Origin: a virus
Taxonomy: Duplodnaviria > Caudoviricetes
Direction: 5' to 3' (one strand)
Length of the DNA: 52,942 nt
Virus record (IMG/VR): IMGVR_UViG_3300048080_000352
Span: 1-52,942 of that record
This document shows positions 458-52,361 of the stretch, piece after piece. The notes beneath the pieces are model-generated. The model was given only the letters and a program-made list of their open reading frames with translations, searched no databases and was not told the origin of the DNA. Every line of letters begins with the position of its first letter. Position 1 is the stretch's first letter. The translations under genes were made by a program, and so were the position numbers.

Positions 458-1275
458 AGCTCGCGATCGTCACCGCCACGACGAATCCACGCCGCGCCGA
501 CGCCTGCATCAGCACGTGGGGTGACACACCGTTGGTGATCATCCTGAACGGCGTCCACGATGCCGTAGCGGCGGCCGAGTCGACCACGATCGCCGCGCAC
601 TGGATCGTCAACCCTGAGTACCTCGGCACGGTCCCGGCATTCCGCCTCGGTGTCGACTACGCGCTCGAACAGACCGACGCCGACGTCATCGCGTGCCTCC
701 ACGACGATCTGGAGATTCACGAGACGGAGTGGGCAGAGAAGGTGTTGCGGCACTTCGAGCGCTATCCGTCGTGCGGACTGCTCGGATTCGGCGGGGCGGT
801 CGGGCTGGGCGACGCGGATATCTATCAGAAGCCGTACGACCCGATGCAGCTCGCGCGGATCGGCTTCCGCAGCAACCTCGTCGACGCCGAGCAGCATGGG
901 ATGCGGAGCCTACTCGCTGAGCGGGTGGCGTGCCTGGATGGGTTCAGTCAGATCGGGCGGAGAACGTTCTGGCTCGGGGCGAATCCGCCGCTGCCCGATG
1001 ATGGCGCTCGGCGACCGTGGACGGTGCTCGAACAAGGTGGTGTGACCCACCACTTCTATGACGGTCTCTTAGGTTGTTTGGCGCGACGGTATGGATGGGG
1101 AGCATGGTACCTCCCGGTGCGTGGCCGTCATTTGGGAGGGCAGACTGCGGTCGGCGATCCCGGCTATCAGGCTTGGGCGAAGGAGCAGCACGTAGATGGC
1201 GATCACGGCTTTTGGGAGTACGCCCATCGTTGGGGGTATGACAACTTCCTCGACGTGCTTCCTCTCCGAGTCTGA
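454..1275 (+). CDS. Glycosyltransferase family 2-like (GT-A fold)
   Basis: MKLAIVTAT start, ADVIACLHDDLEI DxD-like motif, ACLDG, HHFYD. Confidence 0.8.
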   Translation: MKLAIVTATTNPRRADACISTWGDTPLVIILNGVHDAVAAAESTTIAAHWIVNPEYLGTVPAFRLGVDYALEQTDADVIACLHDDLEIHETEWAEKVLRHFERYPSCGLLGFGGAVGLGDADIYQKPYDPMQLARIGFRSNLVDAEQHGMRSLLAERVACLDGFSQIGRRTFWLGANPPLPDDGARRPWTVLEQGGVTHHFYDGLLGCLARRYGWGAWYLPVRGRHLGGQTAVGDPGYQAWAKEQHVDGDHGFWEYAHRWGYDNFLDVLPLRV

Positions 1276-1277
1276 GC

Positions 1278-2750
1278 TTGATGATGATGAAGTACACCCC
1301 GCTGACGACGAGCGATCTGCGGCTGCCGGCGCTGCCGCCTGCGCCAGTCGAGCAGCGGATCGCCGAGGGCGTACGGACGGCTGTCGCGGCGGCGGGTGCT
1401 GCGCTCCCGACCTCCGACGTCGATCTCTGGCCCGATCCCTGCCCACCGTTCACCTATCTCGCCGGCGCCGCTGGCAGCGGAAAAACCTTCGCGACGAAAG
1501 CCTGGGCCGAGCAGGAGCACGGCCTCGAGCTCTGCGCCACAACCGGGATTGCGGCGATCAACGTCGGCGGCACGACCATCAACGCGCTGCTCGGCTACTT
1601 CGACACCAAGAGTCTGCAGGAGAGCTTCATCAACGGCTTCCTCACCGCGCGCCTCGGGCGGCTGTGGAAGGCGGGCGTGCGACGGATCGTGCTCGACGAA
1701 GTCAGCATGCTCGACGGCGATCAGCTCACCTACCTGGTGAAGGGGATCGAGGAGGTGAACGGCCGCGGGTACGTGCTGGGGAAGCTGGACGAGGACGACG
1801 AGGCGGGCCCGCCGGCGATGGGGCTGACCTTGGTCGGCGACTTCGCCCAGCTCCCCCCGGTGAAGGCGCCCTTCGCATTCGAGTCCTCGGAGTGGGGGCG
1901 ATTCGCCGAGCCCGGGCACACGATCACGCTCACTGAGATCCGCCGGCAGGCCGATCCTGACTTCATCAGGGCCCTACGCGCGGCGCGTGTCGGCGACGGG
2001 CACCAGGCGCTCGCCTATTTCGCCGGTCGCCTCCACCGCGAGACTGACGATCAATTCCCTGGCCCGACGTTCCTCGCGAAGAACGAAGCGGTCGATCGCT
2101 ACAACTGGATCCGCCTCTCGAAGCTCTCGGGGCGCGACGTGATCTTTCCGAGCGATCGGTGGGGGAAGCAGCGCGCCGAGTGGGGCCACCCGGACAAGCC
2201 GCCGCACACCTGGGGGATCCCGGTACGGCTGTCGCTGAAGATCGGCGCGCTCGTCATGGTGCTGGCGAACCGGCGCCCGCTGGTGGGGTTCGGCCGCGGC
2301 TTCCTCTATGTGAATGGGGATCTCGGCGAGCTGGTCGATGCCGACGAGGGGAGCCACACCGCGCAGGTCCGATTGCAGCGCACCGGCGAGGTCGTCGATG
2401 TCGAGTACGTGCGGCGCGAGGTGCTCCTCCCGTGTGATAGTGCCCGGCGGAAGGAGCTGCGCGAGCAGCATAAGGAGGAGTTGATCTCGGAGAATGGGCG
2501 GTTCGAGATCGTCGGGTGGGTCAGCTATATGCCGCTCAGAGTCGCGTACGCGGCGACGGTGCACAAGTCGCAGGGGCTGAGCCTCGACCGGGTGCAGGTG
2601 AACATCGCCGACGCGTTCTTCAAGACGCCCGGGATGATCTACGTCGCACTCTCACGGGCGCGGACGGCGGAGGGACTACGGCTGGTCGGGACGGCGGCGG
2701 CGTTTGTCGAGCGGTGCAATGCGGATCCGAGGTTGAAGGAGTACCTATAG
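1278..2750 (+). CDS. Pif1/RecD-like SF1B DNA helicase
   Basis: GAAGSGKT, LDEVSM, GDFAQLPPV, RRQ, YAATVHKSQGLSLD, YVALSRAR. Confidence 0.93.
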   Translation: MMMMKYTPLTTSDLRLPALPPAPVEQRIAEGVRTAVAAAGAALPTSDVDLWPDPCPPFTYLAGAAGSGKTFATKAWAEQEHGLELCATTGIAAINVGGTTINALLGYFDTKSLQESFINGFLTARLGRLWKAGVRRIVLDEVSMLDGDQLTYLVKGIEEVNGRGYVLGKLDEDDEAGPPAMGLTLVGDFAQLPPVKAPFAFESSEWGRFAEPGHTITLTEIRRQADPDFIRALRAARVGDGHQALAYFAGRLHRETDDQFPGPTFLAKNEAVDRYNWIRLSKLSGRDVIFPSDRWGKQRAEWGHPDKPPHTWGIPVRLSLKIGALVMVLANRRPLVGFGRGFLYVNGDLGELVDADEGSHTAQVRLQRTGEVVDVEYVRREVLLPCDSARRKELREQHKEELISENGRFEIVGWVSYMPLRVAYAATVHKSQGLSLDRVQVNIADAFFKTPGMIYVALSRARTAEGLRLVGTAAAFVERCNADPRLKEYL

Positions 2751-4533: not shown

Positions 4534-5358
4534 ATGTCATCCCTTGTCACCTTCCCCGGGCGGTTCGGCGATTTGATTTGGGCCCTGCCGACTGTGCGGG
4601 CGATCAGCGAGACCTTTGAAGAGCCGGTTGCGCTGCAGCTCAGCGTGGGCCTCGACTCGATCACGCCGCTGCTACAGCGGCAGCCCTACATCGACTCGAT
4701 CCTCGTCGACACGGGCTGGCTGACACAGGACACCGCGCCAATCACGCCGCGCACGCCACCAGTGACGGCTGAGGGGTACGATCGGGTGTTCCATCTCGGC
4801 TACGACGGCTGGCCGGGCGCGCCCCTCCCGATCGATATCTATCGACGTGCCGCGGCGCAGGAGGCGCTGCAGGCGATCGATCTCGACCGGCCGTGGATCG
4901 GCGCGCCCTATCACCTGCCGCCGATGGACGTAGCGGTCGGCTTCACCGATGAGCACTTCGAGCTGAAGTACGGCCTCTGCTGGCTGCTGCAAAACCGGTT
5001 CGGCCGCAGCCACAAGATCGCGAACCTCTCGACCTCGCCGCGCTGGCTGCAGGAGGGCAAACAGCTCGGCATGGATTGGCTGAGCGCCGCCGCGTGGCTC
5101 TCGACGACGCAGGTATTCCTCGGCTGCTGCTCGGCGCTGCATGTGCTCGCCTGCGCGGTCGGCTGCCCGGTGATCCTCATGGAGCCGGCAGAGGCACGCT
5201 GGGCGGACGTGTTCTACCCCTACGGAAAGGCGGGGCCGCAGGTCACGCTGGTGCTCGGCAACGACGGGCGGCCAACCTGGGACGCGCGGCATCTCGCCGA
5301 GGCGATCGAGCGGGTCCGTCGCGTACCGACGGCTGAGGCCCAGGTCTCCGCGCGATGA
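4534..5358 (+). CDS. Glycosyltransferase family 9-like (heptosyltransferase-like, GT-B)
   Basis: GRFGDLIWALPTVRAI and FLGCCSALHVLACAVGCPVI match GT9 N- and C-terminal motifs; AGGAGG RBS. Confidence 0.78.
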   Translation: MSSLVTFPGRFGDLIWALPTVRAISETFEEPVALQLSVGLDSITPLLQRQPYIDSILVDTGWLTQDTAPITPRTPPVTAEGYDRVFHLGYDGWPGAPLPIDIYRRAAAQEALQAIDLDRPWIGAPYHLPPMDVAVGFTDEHFELKYGLCWLLQNRFGRSHKIANLSTSPRWLQEGKQLGMDWLSAAAWLSTTQVFLGCCSALHVLACAVGCPVILMEPAEARWADVFYPYGKAGPQVTLVLGNDGRPTWDARHLAEAIERVRRVPTAEAQVSAR

Positions 5359-5651
5359 AACTCGTAAACTACGGCGTCGGCGAGATCAGCGACCGCCTCA
5401 CGATCCTGGCGCTGAAGACTGAACTCGCGCAGCTGTTCGAGGATCAGGACCGCGGCGTGCTCACGCTCAGCACGATCCATAAGGCGAAGGGCCGGGAGTG
5501 GCCGACGGTCGCGATCCTGCAGCCCGAGCTGATGCCGAGCGGCTGGGCGACCAAGGACTGGGAGCAGCAGCAGGAGACCAACCTGAAGTATGTCGCGATC
5601 ACGCGGGCGCGCGAGCGGCTGATCTGGCTGGACGGGAAGCTGGAGGAGTAG
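5355..5651 (+). CDS. Chimera: DUF6165-like N-terminus fused to a UvrD/Rep helicase C-terminal fragment
   Basis: First 21 aa mirror the start of 5789..6172; remainder has TLSTIHKAKGREW and YVAITRAR (SF1A motifs V/VI). Confidence 0.8.
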   Translation: MKLVNYGVGEISDRLTILALKTELAQLFEDQDRGVLTLSTIHKAKGREWPTVAILQPELMPSGWATKDWEQQQETNLKYVAITRARERLIWLDGKLEE

Positions 5652-5792
5652 ATGGACAAGGCACCGAAAGCCATCACCGTGTGCAATCTCGAAGTCGTCG
5701 TTATGCCGAACGGCGAAGTGATCTGCTCCGGCAAGACGCTCGGGTGGATCAAGACATTGGGGCCGTACCTGACTCCGAGGGCTGCTGTATGA
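5652..5792 (+). CDS. Small hypothetical protein (46 aa)
   Basis: MDKAPKAITVCNLEVVVMPNGEVICSGK...; GGAGG RBS; ATGA overlap with next gene. Confidence 0.6.
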   Translation: MDKAPKAITVCNLEVVVMPNGEVICSGKTLGWIKTLGPYLTPRAAV

Positions 5793-6172
5793 GGCTGATC
5801 AACTTCGGCGCCGGCGAAGTCTGCGATCGGTTGACGATCCTCGCGCTGAAGATCCTGCATGGGACTGTGCGGGGCCGAGACGTCGCGCACTGGCAGAAAG
5901 AGCAAGTCGTGCTGCTGACCAAGATCGCCGCGCGCAATGGGAGCTGGTTCGGGCACTACACCGAGCTGGCGGCGGTGAACGCGTCGATCTGGCAAGGGGA
6001 GGACGAGCTACGCAGCCATCGCGTTGGCAGCGGCGGCCAGCCCCCAACAGAGGTCTGGCCGACGCTCGTCCAACTGGGATTCCGCATACAGGAGCTGAAC
6101 GATCAACGCGCGGCGCTGATCGAGGCGATCAACAAGGAAGCCGGCGACCACTTGGGATCGGAGAAGTTATGA
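5789..6172 (+). CDS. DUF6165-like helical protein
   Basis: GEVCDRLTILALK, NASIWQGEDELR, LNDQRAALIEAIN, GSEK resemble DUF6165, a family often found beside GT9 genes. Confidence 0.65.
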   Translation: MRLINFGAGEVCDRLTILALKILHGTVRGRDVAHWQKEQVVLLTKIAARNGSWFGHYTELAAVNASIWQGEDELRSHRVGSGGQPPTEVWPTLVQLGFRIQELNDQRAALIEAINKEAGDHLGSEKL

Positions 6173-6366
6173 GGGAGGACATTCTCCTCATCGGATCAGA
6201 AGAGGTCATGCGTGGAGGCCACGCCATGCAGGACGCAGCGCGGCAAATGGCGAACGTGTCCAGCAACATCCAATTGGTACTCGAAGCCCACCAGCGATTC
6301 CTCGATGATTGGCTGCTGCGCTATGAGCAAGTACTGGAGACGGATCGCGCGGAGCGTGCGCGGTGA
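6169..6366 (+). CDS. Hypothetical protein
   Basis: 65 aa, translationally coupled on both sides. Confidence 0.6.
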   Translation: MREDILLIGSEEVMRGGHAMQDAARQMANVSSNIQLVLEAHQRFLDDWLLRYEQVLETDRAERAR

Positions 6367-6854
6367 ACGTCCTCCTCGTCACGACATGGGACACCGCATG
6401 CGGGATCGCGGAGGCGGACCTGCCGCGGATCGAGCGCGACATCGTCGTCGATCCGATCATGGGCTGTTGGCTCTGGGTAGGGCCAGTGCAGCCTCGCACC
6501 GGGTACGGCGTGTACTATTCGCTCGATTGCCGAATCTTCCGCGCGCACCGGCTGATCTACCAGCTCCTGAAGGGGCCGATCACAGCGCCGTCGCTTGACC
6601 ACGGCGACTGCCCGAAGCTCTGTGTCAATCCTGAGCATCTAGATCCTGTGACGGTACGAGAGAACACCCTACGGGGGAATGGACCATCGGCGATCAATGC
6701 CCGCAAGACGCACTGCCACCACGGCCATCCACTCTCAGGCGACAACCTGAAGACGAAGCAAGGTCCACACGGGCTGATGCGTATCTGTCGAATCTGCTGG
6801 CGTACGTACCATCGCGAGCGTGAGCGACGGCTGCGAAGGGAGCGTGCGGCATGA
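6363..6854 (+). CDS. HNH homing endonuclease with a captured glycosyltransferase N-terminus
   Basis: GCWLW, RAHRLIY, LDH..CVNPEHL..VT..EN..RG, KTHCxHGH, CRIC; first 17 aa mirror the downstream GT. Confidence 0.9.
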   Translation: MNVLLVTTWDTACGIAEADLPRIERDIVVDPIMGCWLWVGPVQPRTGYGVYYSLDCRIFRAHRLIYQLLKGPITAPSLDHGDCPKLCVNPEHLDPVTVRENTLRGNGPSAINARKTHCHHGHPLSGDNLKTKQGPHGLMRICRICWRTYHRERERRLRRERAA

Positions 6855-7813
6855 GCCTCAAAGTACTGTTGGTCACCACATGGAATGCTGCCTGCGGTAT
6901 TAGCGAGCATAGCGCGTACCTCAAGGAGGCGGTCGAGGCGGCTGACCCGGAGATCGATCTCATCCCCGATCCGACTGCGCTGGATCCGGCAGTGTTCGGC
7001 CACGCTGGCCTGCCGGCGATCTGTCACCTCAATTACCAGGCGGCGCTCCATAGCCGCTGGCAACCCGAGACGATCCGCCGCGTACAGCAGCTCGGCGTGA
7101 AGGTGATCGTGACCTGGCACGATAGCGGCGCCCCGAACTCTGATCTCTGCAAAGCGATCGTCGACGCCGCCGACGCCGCCGTCGTGCATGAGCCGTTCGA
7201 TGACCTCCCCCTGGAGGAGGTGCGGTACTGGCGGATGGGCGTGCCCGACTGGCCCGGCGGCTGGTATCACGACCACGGCCGCTCCTCGTGGTGTGGCGAT
7301 CGGCCGATCCTCGGCACGGTGGGCTTCCCCTTCCCGTGGAAGAACTACGACGAGCTGGCGCGGGTGACAGCGGCCTGCGGCTGGGCCCTGCTGCTGATCG
7401 CCCCGACGGCCACCGCCGCCGACGTCGCGCGCTGGGCGGCGATCAATCCGCACCTCTATGTCGAGACGAGCTTTCTCCCTCGCGACACAGTCATCAGCCA
7501 GCTCGCCGCCTGCGACGCAACGGCCTTCCTCTACACCTGCGCGAACACCGGGCAGTCTGGCGCAATCTGCCAAGGGATTGCAGCGCGCAAGCCCGTGATC
7601 GCGTTCAGCCCCTCGATCTGTCGGCAGTTCCGCTGCTATGAACATGAGCCGGCGATTCGCTGGTGCAGCAGTGAGGCGCAGGTCAGAGTCGCCTTACGGA
7701 CCCTGCCCATCCAGCGCTGCGATCCTGGCATTGTTGAGCTAGCCCATCGTGACAGCTGGGCGCAGCTCGGGCGGAAGTACGCGGCGCTGTACCACAACGT
7801 GGGAGGCGGCTGA
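6851..7813 (+). CDS. Glycosyltransferase family 4-like (GT-B)
   Basis: KVLLVTTW..CGISEHS, GTVGFPFPWKNYD, SGAICQGIAARKPVI, SWAQLGRKYAALY. Confidence 0.82.
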   Translation: MSLKVLLVTTWNAACGISEHSAYLKEAVEAADPEIDLIPDPTALDPAVFGHAGLPAICHLNYQAALHSRWQPETIRRVQQLGVKVIVTWHDSGAPNSDLCKAIVDAADAAVVHEPFDDLPLEEVRYWRMGVPDWPGGWYHDHGRSSWCGDRPILGTVGFPFPWKNYDELARVTAACGWALLLIAPTATAADVARWAAINPHLYVETSFLPRDTVISQLAACDATAFLYTCANTGQSGAICQGIAARKPVIAFSPSICRQFRCYEHEPAIRWCSSEAQVRVALRTLPIQRCDPGIVELAHRDSWAQLGRKYAALYHNVGGG

Positions 7814-48941: not shown

Positions 48942-50513
48942 TCATCGGCTCCTCCCAATCACGACGGCCGACAGCGTCGGCGGCATGATCCACGTTTCGC
49001 CGGCGTCGAGGTCGTGCGCCTCACGTAACGTACCGGTCAGCGGATCGTAGACATCGACGTGCATGGAGGACCGCGCTTCAAACGGAATCGGCACATCCGC
49101 GAGGATCGGCATCATCACGAAGCGGCCGTCTCCGTCGATCGCGGCGAAGGCCCGCAGGAGCTGGCCACCCTCGACTAAGGGGACGAGCCTGTCCGTATTG
49201 AACGGATGCCGAATGCCGGCCTGCCGGTTGTTGTTCTGAAAATTCCAATTCGGCAGATCGGCTGGCAACAATTTCCGCACGGCGTTGAGCCCCGCAAGGA
49301 TCTCAGCGATGTGCGGCACTTCCCAGATGTTTGCCGATCGGCCACGCGCGAGGTCCGCAACTCCGCCCCCGCGGATGCCGGCGCCGGTGTGCAACACGTA
49401 GCTCGCGCCATTACAGAGCCACGTGTAGGCCGCCGCCATCGTGAGCCTCAGCGGGTCATTGTCCGCCGCAACAGAGGACTGCGGGCCAATCGGTTCATTG
49501 CTCGCCCACGCGCCGCCCCAGAAGAGGTTCGGGTCGCGCGCCTGGCGCACGTGCCGCCAGCCGCGGTCGCCAAAGGAGCGATCGACGTGAACCATCGCGA
49601 GGTTCGCACGCGAGCCTCGGTACCAATCCCGGAAGTTCAGCTCTGGTCCACTGCCGAGATCGACCACATCGACCGCCGTCGTCGACACGATGTTCGGGGT
49701 CAGATCGCGGAGCAGGTCAGCCAGCCGCTTGATCTCGGCGTAGTTGTCGCCCCAGCCGGTGCCCCAGGCCTCATTCGCGACTTCGAGGACAACCACCTTC
49801 TCCGGCCGCGCCGCGACGATACCGGCGACACGCCGGACCAACGCCTCGCGCGCCGCAGCCGTCGGCGTCTTGTCCAGCCCGCCGAAGATCGTGACCTGCG
49901 TCCGCAGGCCGTAGGTGTCGTACGCGAGGTCGATCTGGCCGGCCAAGCTCTCCGCCCAGGCCGGGTCGGTCGGGTCGCTTGTCCGGTCCTCCCAGGCCCC
50001 GGACGGGCCAACCGCCGCGAGGACACGGATGTAGTCCACCTTACCCGCAAGGTACGCGAGATTCGCCTCCAGCCGCACGAGGTTGTGCTGGTATCCCCAC
50101 GGTGCCCAGAAGAGCGACGTCCCCAGGCCGAGGAACGGCCCGTCGTCGTCTACGAGCGTTCGGCCCTCACGCCGCACCAGGCCACGCCGGGCGACGGGCT
50201 GCGCCACGACGCGCTCCAGCGTGACCGCGTCCAGCTCCGTGTCGCCGGCGGGCAGCACGAGCCGCGACTCCTGAGGGACGTAGTCCTGCGCGCCGCTCAG
50301 ATAGAGCGTGGCCCCGCCCGTGACTGCGCCTGGCACGAAGAAGGACAGATGCCGATCGGTGCGCTCGGCGCCCAGCGGCGCGCTCAGGTCGGGCACGATC
50401 ACCGCCTCGATCTGCTCGGGAGGCGGCCCGTAGACGGTCAGCCCTACCCGGCGGCTCGGCGGCGGCCCCGGCGGCTGCGTGCGTTGGCGAATCAGATCCC
50501 AGACGATGCTCAT
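48942..50513 (-). CDS. Glycoside hydrolase-like protein (clan GH-A TIM barrel)
   Basis: DYIRV, LEVANE (putative acid/base), H.DR, SNEPIG (putative nucleophile), C-terminal beta domain. Confidence 0.65.
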   Translation of the reverse strand: MSIVWDLIRQRTQPPGPPPSRRVGLTVYGPPPEQIEAVIVPDLSAPLGAERTDRHLSFFVPGAVTGGATLYLSGAQDYVPQESRLVLPAGDTELDAVTLERVVAQPVARRGLVRREGRTLVDDDGPFLGLGTSLFWAPWGYQHNLVRLEANLAYLAGKVDYIRVLAAVGPSGAWEDRTSDPTDPAWAESLAGQIDLAYDTYGLRTQVTIFGGLDKTPTAAAREALVRRVAGIVAARPEKVVVLEVANEAWGTGWGDNYAEIKRLADLLRDLTPNIVSTTAVDVVDLGSGPELNFRDWYRGSRANLAMVHVDRSFGDRGWRHVRQARDPNLFWGGAWASNEPIGPQSSVAADNDPLRLTMAAAYTWLCNGASYVLHTGAGIRGGGVADLARGRSANIWEVPHIAEILAGLNAVRKLLPADLPNWNFQNNNRQAGIRHPFNTDRLVPLVEGGQLLRAFAAIDGDGRFVMMPILADVPIPFEARSSMHVDVYDPLTGTLREAHDLDAGETWIMPPTLSAVVIGRSR

Positions 50514-50634
50514 GTTCTCGGCCTCTTCTGACGCGCGTCGATCCGAGATCGTGGCGTCCGGGTCGGCTCCCCAGCCTCATCCTCTGCGCCTTTGACAGCG
50601 TGTGAATGAACCGACCGACCCGGACGCCAGCTCG

Positions 50635-50814
50635 TCATCGCCCCACCCTCGCCTTCAGTGTGCGTGTCCTTCTCTGACGCATCACCAGCCCGTGTGCCCG
50701 CGCCACGAGCTGCGCCGCCGCCGCCGGCGCCCCGGCCCACATCAGCAGCGTCCGCGCATCGCGCAGCAGATACCGGGCGGCCCGGAGCGCGGCGGTGCGG
50801 GTCGGCTGCTTCAC
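50635..50814 (-). CDS. Small basic hypothetical protein
   Basis: MKQPTRTAALRAARYLL...; GTGA and ATGA coupling. Confidence 0.4.
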   Translation of the reverse strand: MKQPTRTAALRAARYLLRDARTLLMWAGAPAAAAQLVARAHGLVMRQRRTRTLKARVGR

Positions 50815-51248
50815 CGCGGATCTCCAACGGAGTCCTCCACGCGCAGTTCAAAATGGCCCATCACCACTCCAACAGGTCGCGTGCGCCCGTGTTCATTGTT
50901 TTCGTAGCGCTTGATCCAGTTGTAGTTGGCACACAGCAGTTGGTACTTGCCCTCGCTGTTTGCGGCGACCTTCCGGTAGTACTGCTTGCTGCTATTCGAC
51001 CTGTAGCGTGTTTCGCTATTGGCATCCCCTCGCACATGATCGAACTGCAAGGCACGAGCATCTGAGAATCCGCAGCGCACGCACCGGCCGCCCAACGCCG
51101 CGATTGCATCGCGCCTGGCGTGCTCTCGACGTTCCCTGCAAGCTCTCGCCGCACGTTCAGGATTGGTTTTCACCCAGGCCCTCGCTCGACTGATGTATTC
51201 CTGTCTGTGCCGCCTGTAGTGTTGCGCTTGACACGGTGTCTGAGACAT
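50811..51248 (-). CDS. HNH-type endonuclease carrying the displaced endolysin C-terminus
   Basis: LGGRCVRCG..D.RALQFDHV.G, YQLLCANYNWIK; ends MGHFELRVEDSVGDPR. Confidence 0.85.
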   Translation of the reverse strand: MSQTPCQAQHYRRHRQEYISRARAWVKTNPERAARACRERREHARRDAIAALGGRCVRCGFSDARALQFDHVRGDANSETRYRSNSSKQYYRKVAANSEGKYQLLCANYNWIKRYENNEHGRTRPVGVVMGHFELRVEDSVGDPR

Positions 51249-51600
51249 ATTCGAAATGCCCTAAATCAGGAATCGTCCAGCGCCCGCCCCAGCGCAGGCC
51301 GAGCGCTTCGCCGATCGCGCCGATCTTCGGCCAGAGCGGATGGGCAGCCGCCCACGCCAGCTTGTCGCCCCCAGGCGCAGCGGTGTACAGCTCGTAGGGG
51401 ACGAGGTCGATCGCGAGGCCGTCGAGATGTGTGCTGCGCGCGACCCAGCTCGTGCCGGCGGCGAGGTTGATCGCATGCTCGGCGGGCGTGCGGAGGGTGT
51501 CGACGATCAGCACCGCGACTCGCGCCTCGACGCAACGCGCGAGCAGGGCGATCGCGAGTGGCTTGAAGCGTGGGTCGAGATCGTCTAACGCGCGTGACAT
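51157..51600 (-). CDS. Endolysin, peptidase M15 family (L-Ala-D-Glu peptidase-like)
   Basis: TLRT...H, S.HL.GLAIDL, GLRWGGRW, DLGHFE. Confidence 0.9.
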   Translation of the reverse strand: MSRALDDLDPRFKPLAIALLARCVEARVAVLIVDTLRTPAEHAINLAAGTSWVARSTHLDGLAIDLVPYELYTAAPGGDKLAWAAAHPLWPKIGAIGEALGLRWGGRWTIPDLGHFEYVSDTVSSATLQAAQTGIHQSSEGLGENQS

Positions 51601-52361
51601 CAGGACTCAGCCTGCGACACCGGCCCGCTGCCTCCGGCGGATCCGCCCTCGACGACCGCCCCCTCCACAACTGCACCGCCGGAGGCCGGGCGATTGAACA
51701 GAATGTCGCCGACGGCCTGTTGGAGCTGTTCGAGCGCGCCGGGCGCCGCCGATCCCGCCCGCTCGGCGATCAGGTTCTGCTGGATGTTGATCCCCCCGCT
51801 CCGTGTGGTGAGCTGCCCGAGCTCGAGGGCGAGCTTCTGCCGATCGAGATCCGGGAAGGCGAGGAGCTTGCCGCCACCGCGACAGGTGCGGCAGGGCCCG
51901 AGTGAGGGGTTCGGCTGATCCTTAGTCGGCTCCGGAGTACTCGTCCCGAGCCCCGCGCACGCCGTGCACGGGACTTCGTAGGGCGCGCCGCGCGTCATCA
52001 CGTCATCGACGACCGCGACGAGCTTGCCGGCGATGATCGGCGCCGCCTTGATATGCGCCTCAGCGATCGCCGCCTTCCGGTAGGCCGCGAAGAGATCCGC
52101 CACCGTCAGCCCCGCCATCTGGCAGATCCGCCGCAGGGTCATCGTCTCGTAGCGCGGATCGAGCAGCAGCAGGACGATCTTCTCGACCTCGGGCGCCTCA
52201 CTGGCGACGCTGAGCGCCTCGACGAGCGCCTCTCGGCCGCCGACCGCCTTGGTGAAGGTCTCGATCGCCGACGCGGAGAGATCCGCTTCCGCCGGGGTGA
52301 GGGTGGTCTCCCGACGAGTCGCGGCGGGGAGGAGCGCGTCGCCGCGGGAGAGCTTCGCCAT
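51600..52361 (-). CDS. Probable terminase small subunit with DnaJ-type zinc finger
   Basis: HTH-like segment, CTACAGLG...CRTCRGGG, GINIQQN tail; upstream of the lysis genes and TerL. Confidence 0.55.
   Translation of the reverse strand: MAKLSRGDALLPAATRRETTLTPAEADLSASAIETFTKAVGGREALVEALSVASEAPEVEKIVLLLLDPRYETMTLRRICQMAGLTVADLFAAYRKAAIAEAHIKAAPIIAGKLVAVVDDVMTRGAPYEVPCTACAGLGTSTPEPTKDQPNPSLGPCRTCRGGGKLLAFPDLDRQKLALELGQLTTRSGGINIQQNLIAERAGSAAPGALEQLQQAVGDILFNRPASGGAVVEGAVVEGGSAGGSGPVSQAES

Follow-up and report, generated by a model that had tools for sequence, protein, structure and literature searches.

A probable 3'-end-replacing HNH homing-endonuclease cassette at the very end of an M15 endolysin gene of a phage

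Structure of the locus

The window, i.e., the whole stretch of DNA that was analysed, is the IMG/VR virus record IMGVR_UViG_3300048080_000352 (52,942 bases, GC 66%, no end repeats, estimated completeness 76%). Its minus strand carries a gene for an endolysin of the M15 peptidase type whose 3' end overlaps an open reading frame (ORF) for an HNH endonuclease, and the catalytic motif GHFE of the endolysin is encoded there twice, once in each of the two ORFs. This arrangement and its probable origin are the subject of the present text. The locus comprises the following features (GC3, G+C content of third codon positions):

51600..51157, minus strand: endolysin ORF in its present form, 147 amino acids, L-alanyl-D-glutamate peptidase type of Peptidase_M15_4 (Pfam PF13539, E = 8.4e-12)
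51277..51600, minus strand: endolysin codons 1-108, taken as the resident part (GC3 of codons 1-109, 0.86; residues 1-105 closest to the relatives P0003 and P0004)
51244..51273, minus strand: putative replacement end TIPDLGHFEYV, codons 110-119 (first GHFE at 51261..51250; the HNH start codon lies within the Y-V codons)
51157..51243, minus strand: putatively non-native endolysin tail, 28 codons and the stop, an out-of-frame reading of the region coding for the HNH N-terminus
51248..50811, minus strand: HNH endonuclease ORF, 145 amino acids, with homology to the HNH family over residues 6-127
50922..50924, minus strand: TAC codon for Tyr109, at the fourth-cysteine position of the CxxC...CxxC set
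50811..50858, minus strand: putative displaced endolysin end, i.e., the second GHFE (50858..50847), LRVEDSVGDPR and the stop, in frame as the HNH C-terminus
50635..50814, minus strand: next gene, 59 amino acids, GTG start, no Pfam or PHROG match

The endolysin ORF reads ...GGRWTIPDLGHFEYV, followed by 28 further residues, and overlaps the HNH ORF by 92 nt (51157..51248) in a different frame; an earlier reading made from the letters of the DNA (the sequence-only reading) had the endolysin extending 92 nt into the HNH ORF, and both the coordinates and the frames confirm it. The start codon of the HNH ORF falls inside the Y-V codons directly after the first GHFE. The C-terminus of the HNH protein is ...VVMGHFELRVEDSVGDPR (its ending is given also as ...GRTRPVGVVMGHFELRVEDSVGDPR); the frame has no stop codon of its own and runs into the second GHFE and an 11-residue tail, with a TGA that overlaps the GTG of the next gene (GTGA). 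The ribosome-binding site of the latter, GGAG at 50825..50822, lies inside the putative remnant, 7 nt upstream of the GTG. The two GHFE copies are 403 nt apart, which corresponds to the frame offset between the endolysin and HNH ORFs, and the interval between them is almost wholly HNH coding sequence. The locus has the layout by which 3'-end-replacing elements are recognized, namely a full-length host gene, a nuclease gene directly downstream of it, and a displaced 3' fragment of the host gene behind the nuclease.

The endolysin and its tail

The Peptidase_M15_4 match of the endolysin scores 45.9 bits (gathering cut-off 25), with residues 55-118 covering profile positions 6-70 of 70, i.e., a complete domain, and the protein also matches PHROG endolysin families (E = 4e-17). 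Alignments were made to the catalytic domain of the Listeria phage Ply500 enzyme (PDB 2VO9) and to the T5 enzyme (PDB 2MXZ). The SxHxxGxAxD and WGGxW...DxxHFE blocks of these Ply500-type endolysins align with the window endolysin, and its predicted zinc ligands H58, D65, and H115, together with D112, fall on the corresponding residues of 2VO9; the roles of the four residues are those of their Ply500 counterparts. The histidine of HFE is residue 145 of the 2VO9 chain, which, given a 12-residue offset due to the tag, presumably is the third zinc ligand His133. The sequence-only reading had assigned to the GHFE histidine the role of the third zinc ligand of M15 peptidases; the alignment of H115 with its 2VO9 counterpart agrees with this. 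Judging from these alignments, the catalytic domain of the endolysin is complete, none of H58, D65, D112, and H115 being lost. The protein differs from the Ply500-type enzymes in having no cell-wall-binding domain, being a single-domain enzyme of ca. 128 amino acids with a short variable tail.

The present tail comprises 30 residues after GHFE, as against 25 in the longest among 119 relatives. Excision of the 403 nt would join residues 1-117 to an 11-residue tail and give a protein of 128 amino acids. In the 119 relatives, the median length is 127 and the commonest lengths are 127, 128, and 129 amino acids (26, 17, and 12 proteins, respectively), and a tail of 11 residues after the motif is both the commonest (25/119) and the median one. 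The residue following the motif is Y in 86 of these proteins, L in 10, F in 9, and W in 7, so that GHFEY and GHFEL are both natural endings, and Y-V after the motif is the family consensus (64/119). Because the HNH ORF starts in the Y-V codons after GHFE, the 30-residue tail of the endolysin results from the 5' end of the HNH gene being read out of frame.

The HNH nuclease

A scan of 1.84 billion representatives returned 9,298 relatives of the HNH protein at E<=1e-3, the closest of them, P0123, being 60% identical. Three PHROG HNH endonuclease families match residues 6-125 (E = 2e-11, 5e-9, and 6e-6), no Pfam family matches the ORF at E<=0.01, and the solved structures yielded only a weak match to the Cas9 HNH (E = 0.037), with the C-terminal motif outside the match. 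The gene call in the collection, P0122, is an 89-residue protein starting at V57, devoid of the first cysteine and of the homologous N-terminal region; the 145-residue reading is supported by the fact that the homology begins at residue 6.

Residues C56, C59, D70, H71, C106, N108, and N110 are kept, all of them invariant among the nine closest aligned relatives, and comprise the catalytic D-H pair (D70 and H71) and the Asn residues (N108 and N110) of an HNH domain. The cysteines of a CxxC...CxxC set bind zinc, a role assigned here from the motif. In the window protein the set is incomplete: it reads LLCANYNWIKR, with Tyr109 at the fourth position, where relatives have CANCN. The 269 motif instances found in 226 relatives have C at this position in 252 cases, H in 15, V in 1, and D in 1. 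Among 87 relatives obtained by a word-indexed search the motif is CANCN in 73, CSNCN in 8, and CANCH in 1; four are not matched by the motif pattern, and the tails of three of these show a Cys- or His-bearing variant. CANYN is found otherwise only in P0193, a 149-residue HNH relative from a 72-kb contig, which stops right after the motif. Decay is common among homing nucleases once they are fixed, and the window nuclease is probably weakened or inactive. The suggestion of the sequence-only reading that an HNH protein with CANY may be decaying is plausible, the tyrosine occurring only here and in one truncated relative. P0193, in which Cys has likewise given way to Tyr, may itself be another copy in decay.

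The second GHFE

GHFE occurs exactly twice in the six-frame translation of the 52,942 bases, against 0.12 expected from the amino-acid composition, and the chance of meeting it in a given 25 positions is ca. 3e-5. The second copy is located where the homology to HNH relatives stops: the PHROG matches end at residues 120-125, P0123 aligns over HNH residues 6-127 and has its own stop five residues after a shared P-x-G, and [GS]HFE is present in none of the 226 HNH relatives. The second GHFE is more than chance. That it looks like the original tail, as proposed from the letters of the DNA, is borne out by its count, by its position at the end of the HNH homology, and by the typical length of the 11-residue tail behind it.

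Mosaic ancestry of the endolysin gene

Over residues 1-105 the endolysin is 85-86% identical to P0003 and P0004 (next best, 76%); in these two proteins the stretch preceding GHFE is (R/Q)SLRD(M/P) and exceeds TIPDL by one residue. Over residues 106-117, in contrast, the endolysin shows 100% identity to eight proteins whose identity to it over residues 1-105 is no more than 64-69%. Since the two segments have different closest relatives, the gene appears by these comparisons to be a mosaic whose breakpoint directly follows the near-invariant LGLRWGGRW codons. In a quick tree of the endolysins, in which the disputed residues were included and 64 of the 118 forks are unresolved, the window protein groups with P0003 and P0004 at a Shimodaira-Hasegawa approximate likelihood-ratio (SH-aLRT) value of 96.

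The second copy is read as the resident one because its tail has a phage-like G+C content (0.70, the composition of the phage itself), because the next gene has its ribosome-binding site and overlapping start there, and because the loop before the first copy does not match that of the closest relatives of the core. A Met precedes the second GHFE, as in P0003, and in two related endolysin genes without the insert (L007 and L008) the stop likewise overlaps the start of the following gene, as ATGA. We infer from these features that the first copy was imported with the nuclease and that the second is the displaced resident end. The loci L001 and L005-L009 share only the endolysin with the window; their flanking genes are unrelated, and the native tail is not shown by these loci. 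The sequence-only reading had expected that insert-free relatives ending in the DLGHFEYV version would speak against replacement. Many do end so, Y-V being the consensus, but the expectation was ill-posed, as the two closest relatives of the core are without TIPDL.

Related arrangements at other loci

Another endolysin, P0014, is 69% identical to that of the window. The last 14 codons of P0014 (stop included) are compatible, with a one-base shift, with the first 14 residues of the HNH protein P0123. A comparison of 120 endolysins with 89 HNH proteins, covering overlap lengths of 6-44 codons and both shifts, yielded no other overlap of more than 6 codons; when the same 120 endolysins were set against another 138 HNH representatives, just five matches of 7 codons resulted, no more than the chance level. 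P0014 and P0123 thus appear to form a second, well-diverged endolysin/HNH pair with the same Y-V start site, in which the endolysin tail would also be an out-of-frame reading of the nuclease gene.

A different nuclease occupies a similar place in L036, a metagenome contig of 2,545 nt, where an endolysin gene, an HNH_3 gene, and a displaced endolysin end lie in a row at 773-1841. The full endolysin ends in ...LRCGYDWKVKDCGHFEYV..., an unusual end, with the Pfam domain complete; the HNH_3 gene (1745..1098, E = 1.1e-10) is on the strand opposite to the endolysin and unrelated to the HNH gene of the window; and the displaced, consensus-like endolysin end, GRWSIPDLGHFEYLPPADRSTQA, comprises 23 codons with the stop at 1841. 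Among 17 distinct contigs with related endolysins L036 is the only one with two [GS]HFE copies, as in the window, and the HNH family of the window is found in none of the 17 within the flanks that were retrieved. An HNH gene of this family is absent from the site in those 17 contigs, within the same flanks, and apparently present at it in P0014, which overlaps P0123 at the same codons. The recurrence in P0014/P0123 and in L036 makes the displacement and replacement of the endolysin end a much firmer reading.

Elsewhere in the window, an HNH_3 gene (6363..6854, plus strand, Pfam E = 3.5e-6) starts with MNVLLVTTWDTACGIAE, which resembles the start, MSLKVLLVTTWNAACGISE, of the gene for a 320-residue protein that follows it (6851..7813, plus strand), being a near copy of its first 17 residues (BLASTP E = 1e-5). 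In region 6363-7813 it is the 5' end of a gene that is duplicated around a nuclease gene, and this mirrors the endolysin case, as the sequence-only reading had noted. Close to it, an ORF at 5355..5651 (plus strand) starts with MKLVNYGVGEISDRLTILALK and continues as a C-terminal fragment of a UvrD-type helicase (UvrD_C, E = 1.6e-13). By eye, MKLVNYGVGEISDRLTILALK is similar to MRLINFGAGEVCDRLTILALK in the ORF at 5498..6172 (plus strand), whose DUF4254 match is below the threshold (22.9 bits vs. 27). Region 5355-6172 looks like another duplicated gene start beside foreign DNA.

Interpretation and its alternatives

The arrangement is probably a free-standing HNH homing-endonuclease cassette of the 3'-end-replacing kind, situated in the last codons of the phage M15 endolysin gene. 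The core of the sequence-only reading, that an HNH gene displaced the C-terminus of the endolysin and replaced it, is thus supported by the mosaic ancestry of the gene, by the frame and length of the remnant, by the P0014/P0123 pair, and by L036.

Several observations weigh against it. At the DNA level the repeat is 12 nt long (10/12 identical) and no better than many chance repeats nearby, so the evidence for the second GHFE lies in its reading frame and position and not in a DNA repeat. The mosaic signal comes from a loop of five to six residues and from only two close relatives, known as proteins, and the direction of the replacement is called from short segments, the two copies overlapping by four codons only. 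The remnant tail compared with the tails of P0003 and P0004 has a local score of 16, while the best score for an unrelated tail is 22, and a degenerate pattern for the remnant peptide had no match in viral contigs. Neither these contigs nor the sequencing run mentioned below yielded a sibling genome free of the insert. The AT-rich codons of the first copy, which the sequence-only reading had pointed out, are real (GC3 of TIPDLGHFEYV 0.27 over 11 codons vs. 0.86 for codons 1-109; TTA makes up 0.8% of Leu codons in the long ORFs of the window), but the argument for import built on them is weak: AT-rich spelling does not mark import, because insert-free relatives spell the motif similarly. L031, on a contig of 66% GC, uses ATT, GAT, GGA, TTT, GAA, and TAT, L029 uses GAT TTA and CAT, and the L036 remnant has ATT CCT. 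The location of P0014 and P0123 on one contig was not seen directly; we infer it because each comes from one ENA contig of 1,535 nt, the source is the same, and the frames are compatible. Finally, of 20 loci carrying the HNH family just one (L016) has an endolysin relative, 1.3 kb away and not adjacent, so targeting of endolysin genes would be confined to a sub-lineage of the family at most.

Three other explanations were considered. The HNH gene could have landed after GHFE in a native TIPDLGHFEL... gene with ca. 12 nt copied and nothing imported, the Y-V after the first GHFE then being supplied by the T-ATG-T of the insert itself. Such a plain insertion with a short target duplication agrees with the duplicated stretch being only 12 nt long, with the AT-rich spelling common to insert-free relatives, and with TIPDLGHFEL being natural in 5 of the 119 relatives. 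It is nevertheless unlikely. All that distinguishes the two copies is a pair of synonymous changes at third positions, as would be expected of alleles kept under selection; Y-V is the family consensus and also precedes the start of P0123, so that a chance origin requires a T on both sides of the ATG twice; the closest relatives of the core are without TIPDL; and the duplication in L036 extends over 23 codons, far beyond any target-site duplication. The reverse direction, in which TIPDLGHFEYV was resident and the HNH gene brought the second GHFE and its tail from a donor as a co-converted downstream flank, is quite improbable. The second GHFE is indeed spelled with minor codons (CAT 0.28, TTT 0.15, and GAA 0.23 of their families), and the 12-nt overlap cannot tell the direction, but the tail behind it has the G+C content of the phage and provides the next gene with its ribosome-binding site and overlapping start, and the loop of the first copy mismatches the closest relatives of the core. 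Moreover, a displaced resident end lies downstream of the nuclease in L036 and in the fungal and yeast precedents (PMC3630166; PMC7282813).

An origin of the second GHFE by coincidence is very improbable, and so are an assembly artefact, an intron, and an intein as explanations of the arrangement. It is true that chance repeats of short motifs occur and that the contig comes from a metagenome, but the chance of finding GHFE in that stretch is minute, as given above, and a contig of 2,441 nt, assembled separately from a public run (possibly that of the source sample), agrees with 50300..51900 at every position at a depth of ca. 86. In this run, the one found to contain the stretch, the insert-free joint is absent and there is one full-length contig only, which has no bearing on the existence of insert-free alleles. 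A group I or II intron was rejected, as no Rfam intron family matches 50300..51900 at E<=1 (the only Rfam match there is a snoRNA, E = 0.92) and the interval between the GHFE copies is coding for HNH almost in its entirety. An intein was rejected as the HNH frame differs from that of the endolysin.

Proposed origin of the arrangement

The 3'-end-replacing cassette could have arisen as follows. A donor phage bearing the HNH gene and an endolysin of the TIPDL type would have co-infected an ancestor of the window phage, and the nuclease would have cut the endolysin gene of that ancestor in or near the GHFE codons. Repair would then have copied the donor's gene end together with the HNH gene, the upstream crossover falling within the near-invariant codons for LGLRWGGRW, and thereby left the recipient's own end downstream, resuming at about the break. 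The downstream join may have involved a short homology arm behind the nuclease, of the kind proposed for WHO elements (PMC7282813), or else it may have been illegitimate, removing the last few nuclease codons and the stop. The last part of the remnant would have been kept for the sake of the next gene, whose ribosome-binding site and coupled start lie in it. The conserved cysteine of the nuclease, now Tyr109, would have been lost later.

It is conceivable, though on balance doubtful, that the GGRW...GHFE end of small M15 endolysins is a recurrent landing site for unrelated HNH families, each bringing a substitute end; these may comprise at least the CVRCGF/CANCN family of the window and HNH_3 of L036. 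This is hinted at by the presence of TIPDL in at least three clades, by the tail of P0014, wholly an out-of-frame HNH start, and by four endolysin tails of the LQAGVV type. If it were true, the 3' block of endolysin genes and its hypervariable tail of 2-25 residues would be shuffled among phage lineages, as WHO elements do with yeast FBA1, and some endolysin tails would be scars or out-of-frame shadows of nuclease genes.

The TIPDL loop is found in at least three separate clades of the poorly resolved quick tree of the endolysin core (P0110/69/95/99; P0031/32/41; P0057), a distribution that would agree with repeated swaps of the gene end. Four endolysin relatives of 139-141 amino acids (P0009, P0021, P0023, and P0086) have a tail, LQAGVV...Q.G..S, similar to the window's out-of-frame ATLQAAQTG...; tails of this type may be shadows of nuclease genes overlapping the endolysin end. 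For P0021, a search for the coding DNA led only to the contig L006, already among the loci compared.

The cassette suggests that a homing nuclease can live in an essential, intron-free phage gene without breaking it, by carrying a spare version of the very catalytic end that it would cut, and the conserved GHFE codons are a candidate recognition site. The C-terminal tails of endolysins, and even the spelling of catalytic motifs, can be chimeric, and automatic gene calls near such sites can be wrong, as is the case with the HNH gene called as an 89-residue fragment.

Comparison with known systems

Free-standing homing endonucleases of phages, such as the Seg and Mob enzymes of T4 (PMC2988022) and the HNH endonucleases of lactococcal Skunavirus phages (PMC12724721), spread by intronless homing. 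The window resembles them in the free-standing nuclease gene located beside a conserved phage gene, in its patchy presence, in the co-conversion of flanks, and in truncated or decaying copies being common. The free-standing enzymes described in PMC2988022 cut hundreds to thousands of base pairs from their own genes, whereas in the window the nuclease gene lies within the last codons of the target gene, and a displaced copy of the target end remains. The word stem 'duplicat' is absent from the texts of PMC2988022 and PMC12724721, and a phage account of the layout with a substitute end, a nuclease gene, and a displaced end was not found in the full text of open-access papers and preprints.

In the yeasts Torulaspora and Lachancea, the homing target of WHO elements is FBA1, whose 3' end they replace (PMC7282813; bioRxiv 10.64898/2026.08.13.744650). 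The unit that moves comprises a nuclease gene and the 3' end of the host gene upstream of it, the host gene differs in ancestry between its 5' and 3' parts, and old nucleases decay, all of which is similar to the situation in the window. The WHO nucleases, as the same sources have them, are LAGLIDADG/zinc-finger proteins acting in diploid meiosis, the fragments left behind are hundreds of bases long, and the elements form clusters, while the window has a single HNH gene in a phage and a 48-nt fragment.

The layout also matches that of the gene hybrids formed by mobile endonuclease ORFs (mORFs) in fungal mitochondria, reported for atp6 of Allomyces macrogynus and for atp6, atp9, cox2, and nad3 of Glomus sp. 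(PMC3630166). Both there and in the window a core of the host gene, a substitute C-terminus, an endonuclease ORF, and the displaced native C-terminus follow in this order. The two C-termini of the fungal hybrids differ more in DNA than in protein; the nuclease ORF of the window, like theirs, is without a separate stop and continues into the native end. The hosts of the fungal hybrids are respiratory genes and their nucleases are of the LAGLIDADG or GIY-YIG type, in contrast to a phage endolysin and an HNH protein, and the window nuclease is in another frame than its host gene, with a 92-nt overlap, 4 codons duplicated, and 15 displaced. The layout as such is already documented for fungal mitochondria and yeast FBA1, and the window differs from these in the host, a phage endolysin gene, in the HNH family of the nuclease, in the out-of-frame overlap of the two genes, and in the shortness of the displaced piece.

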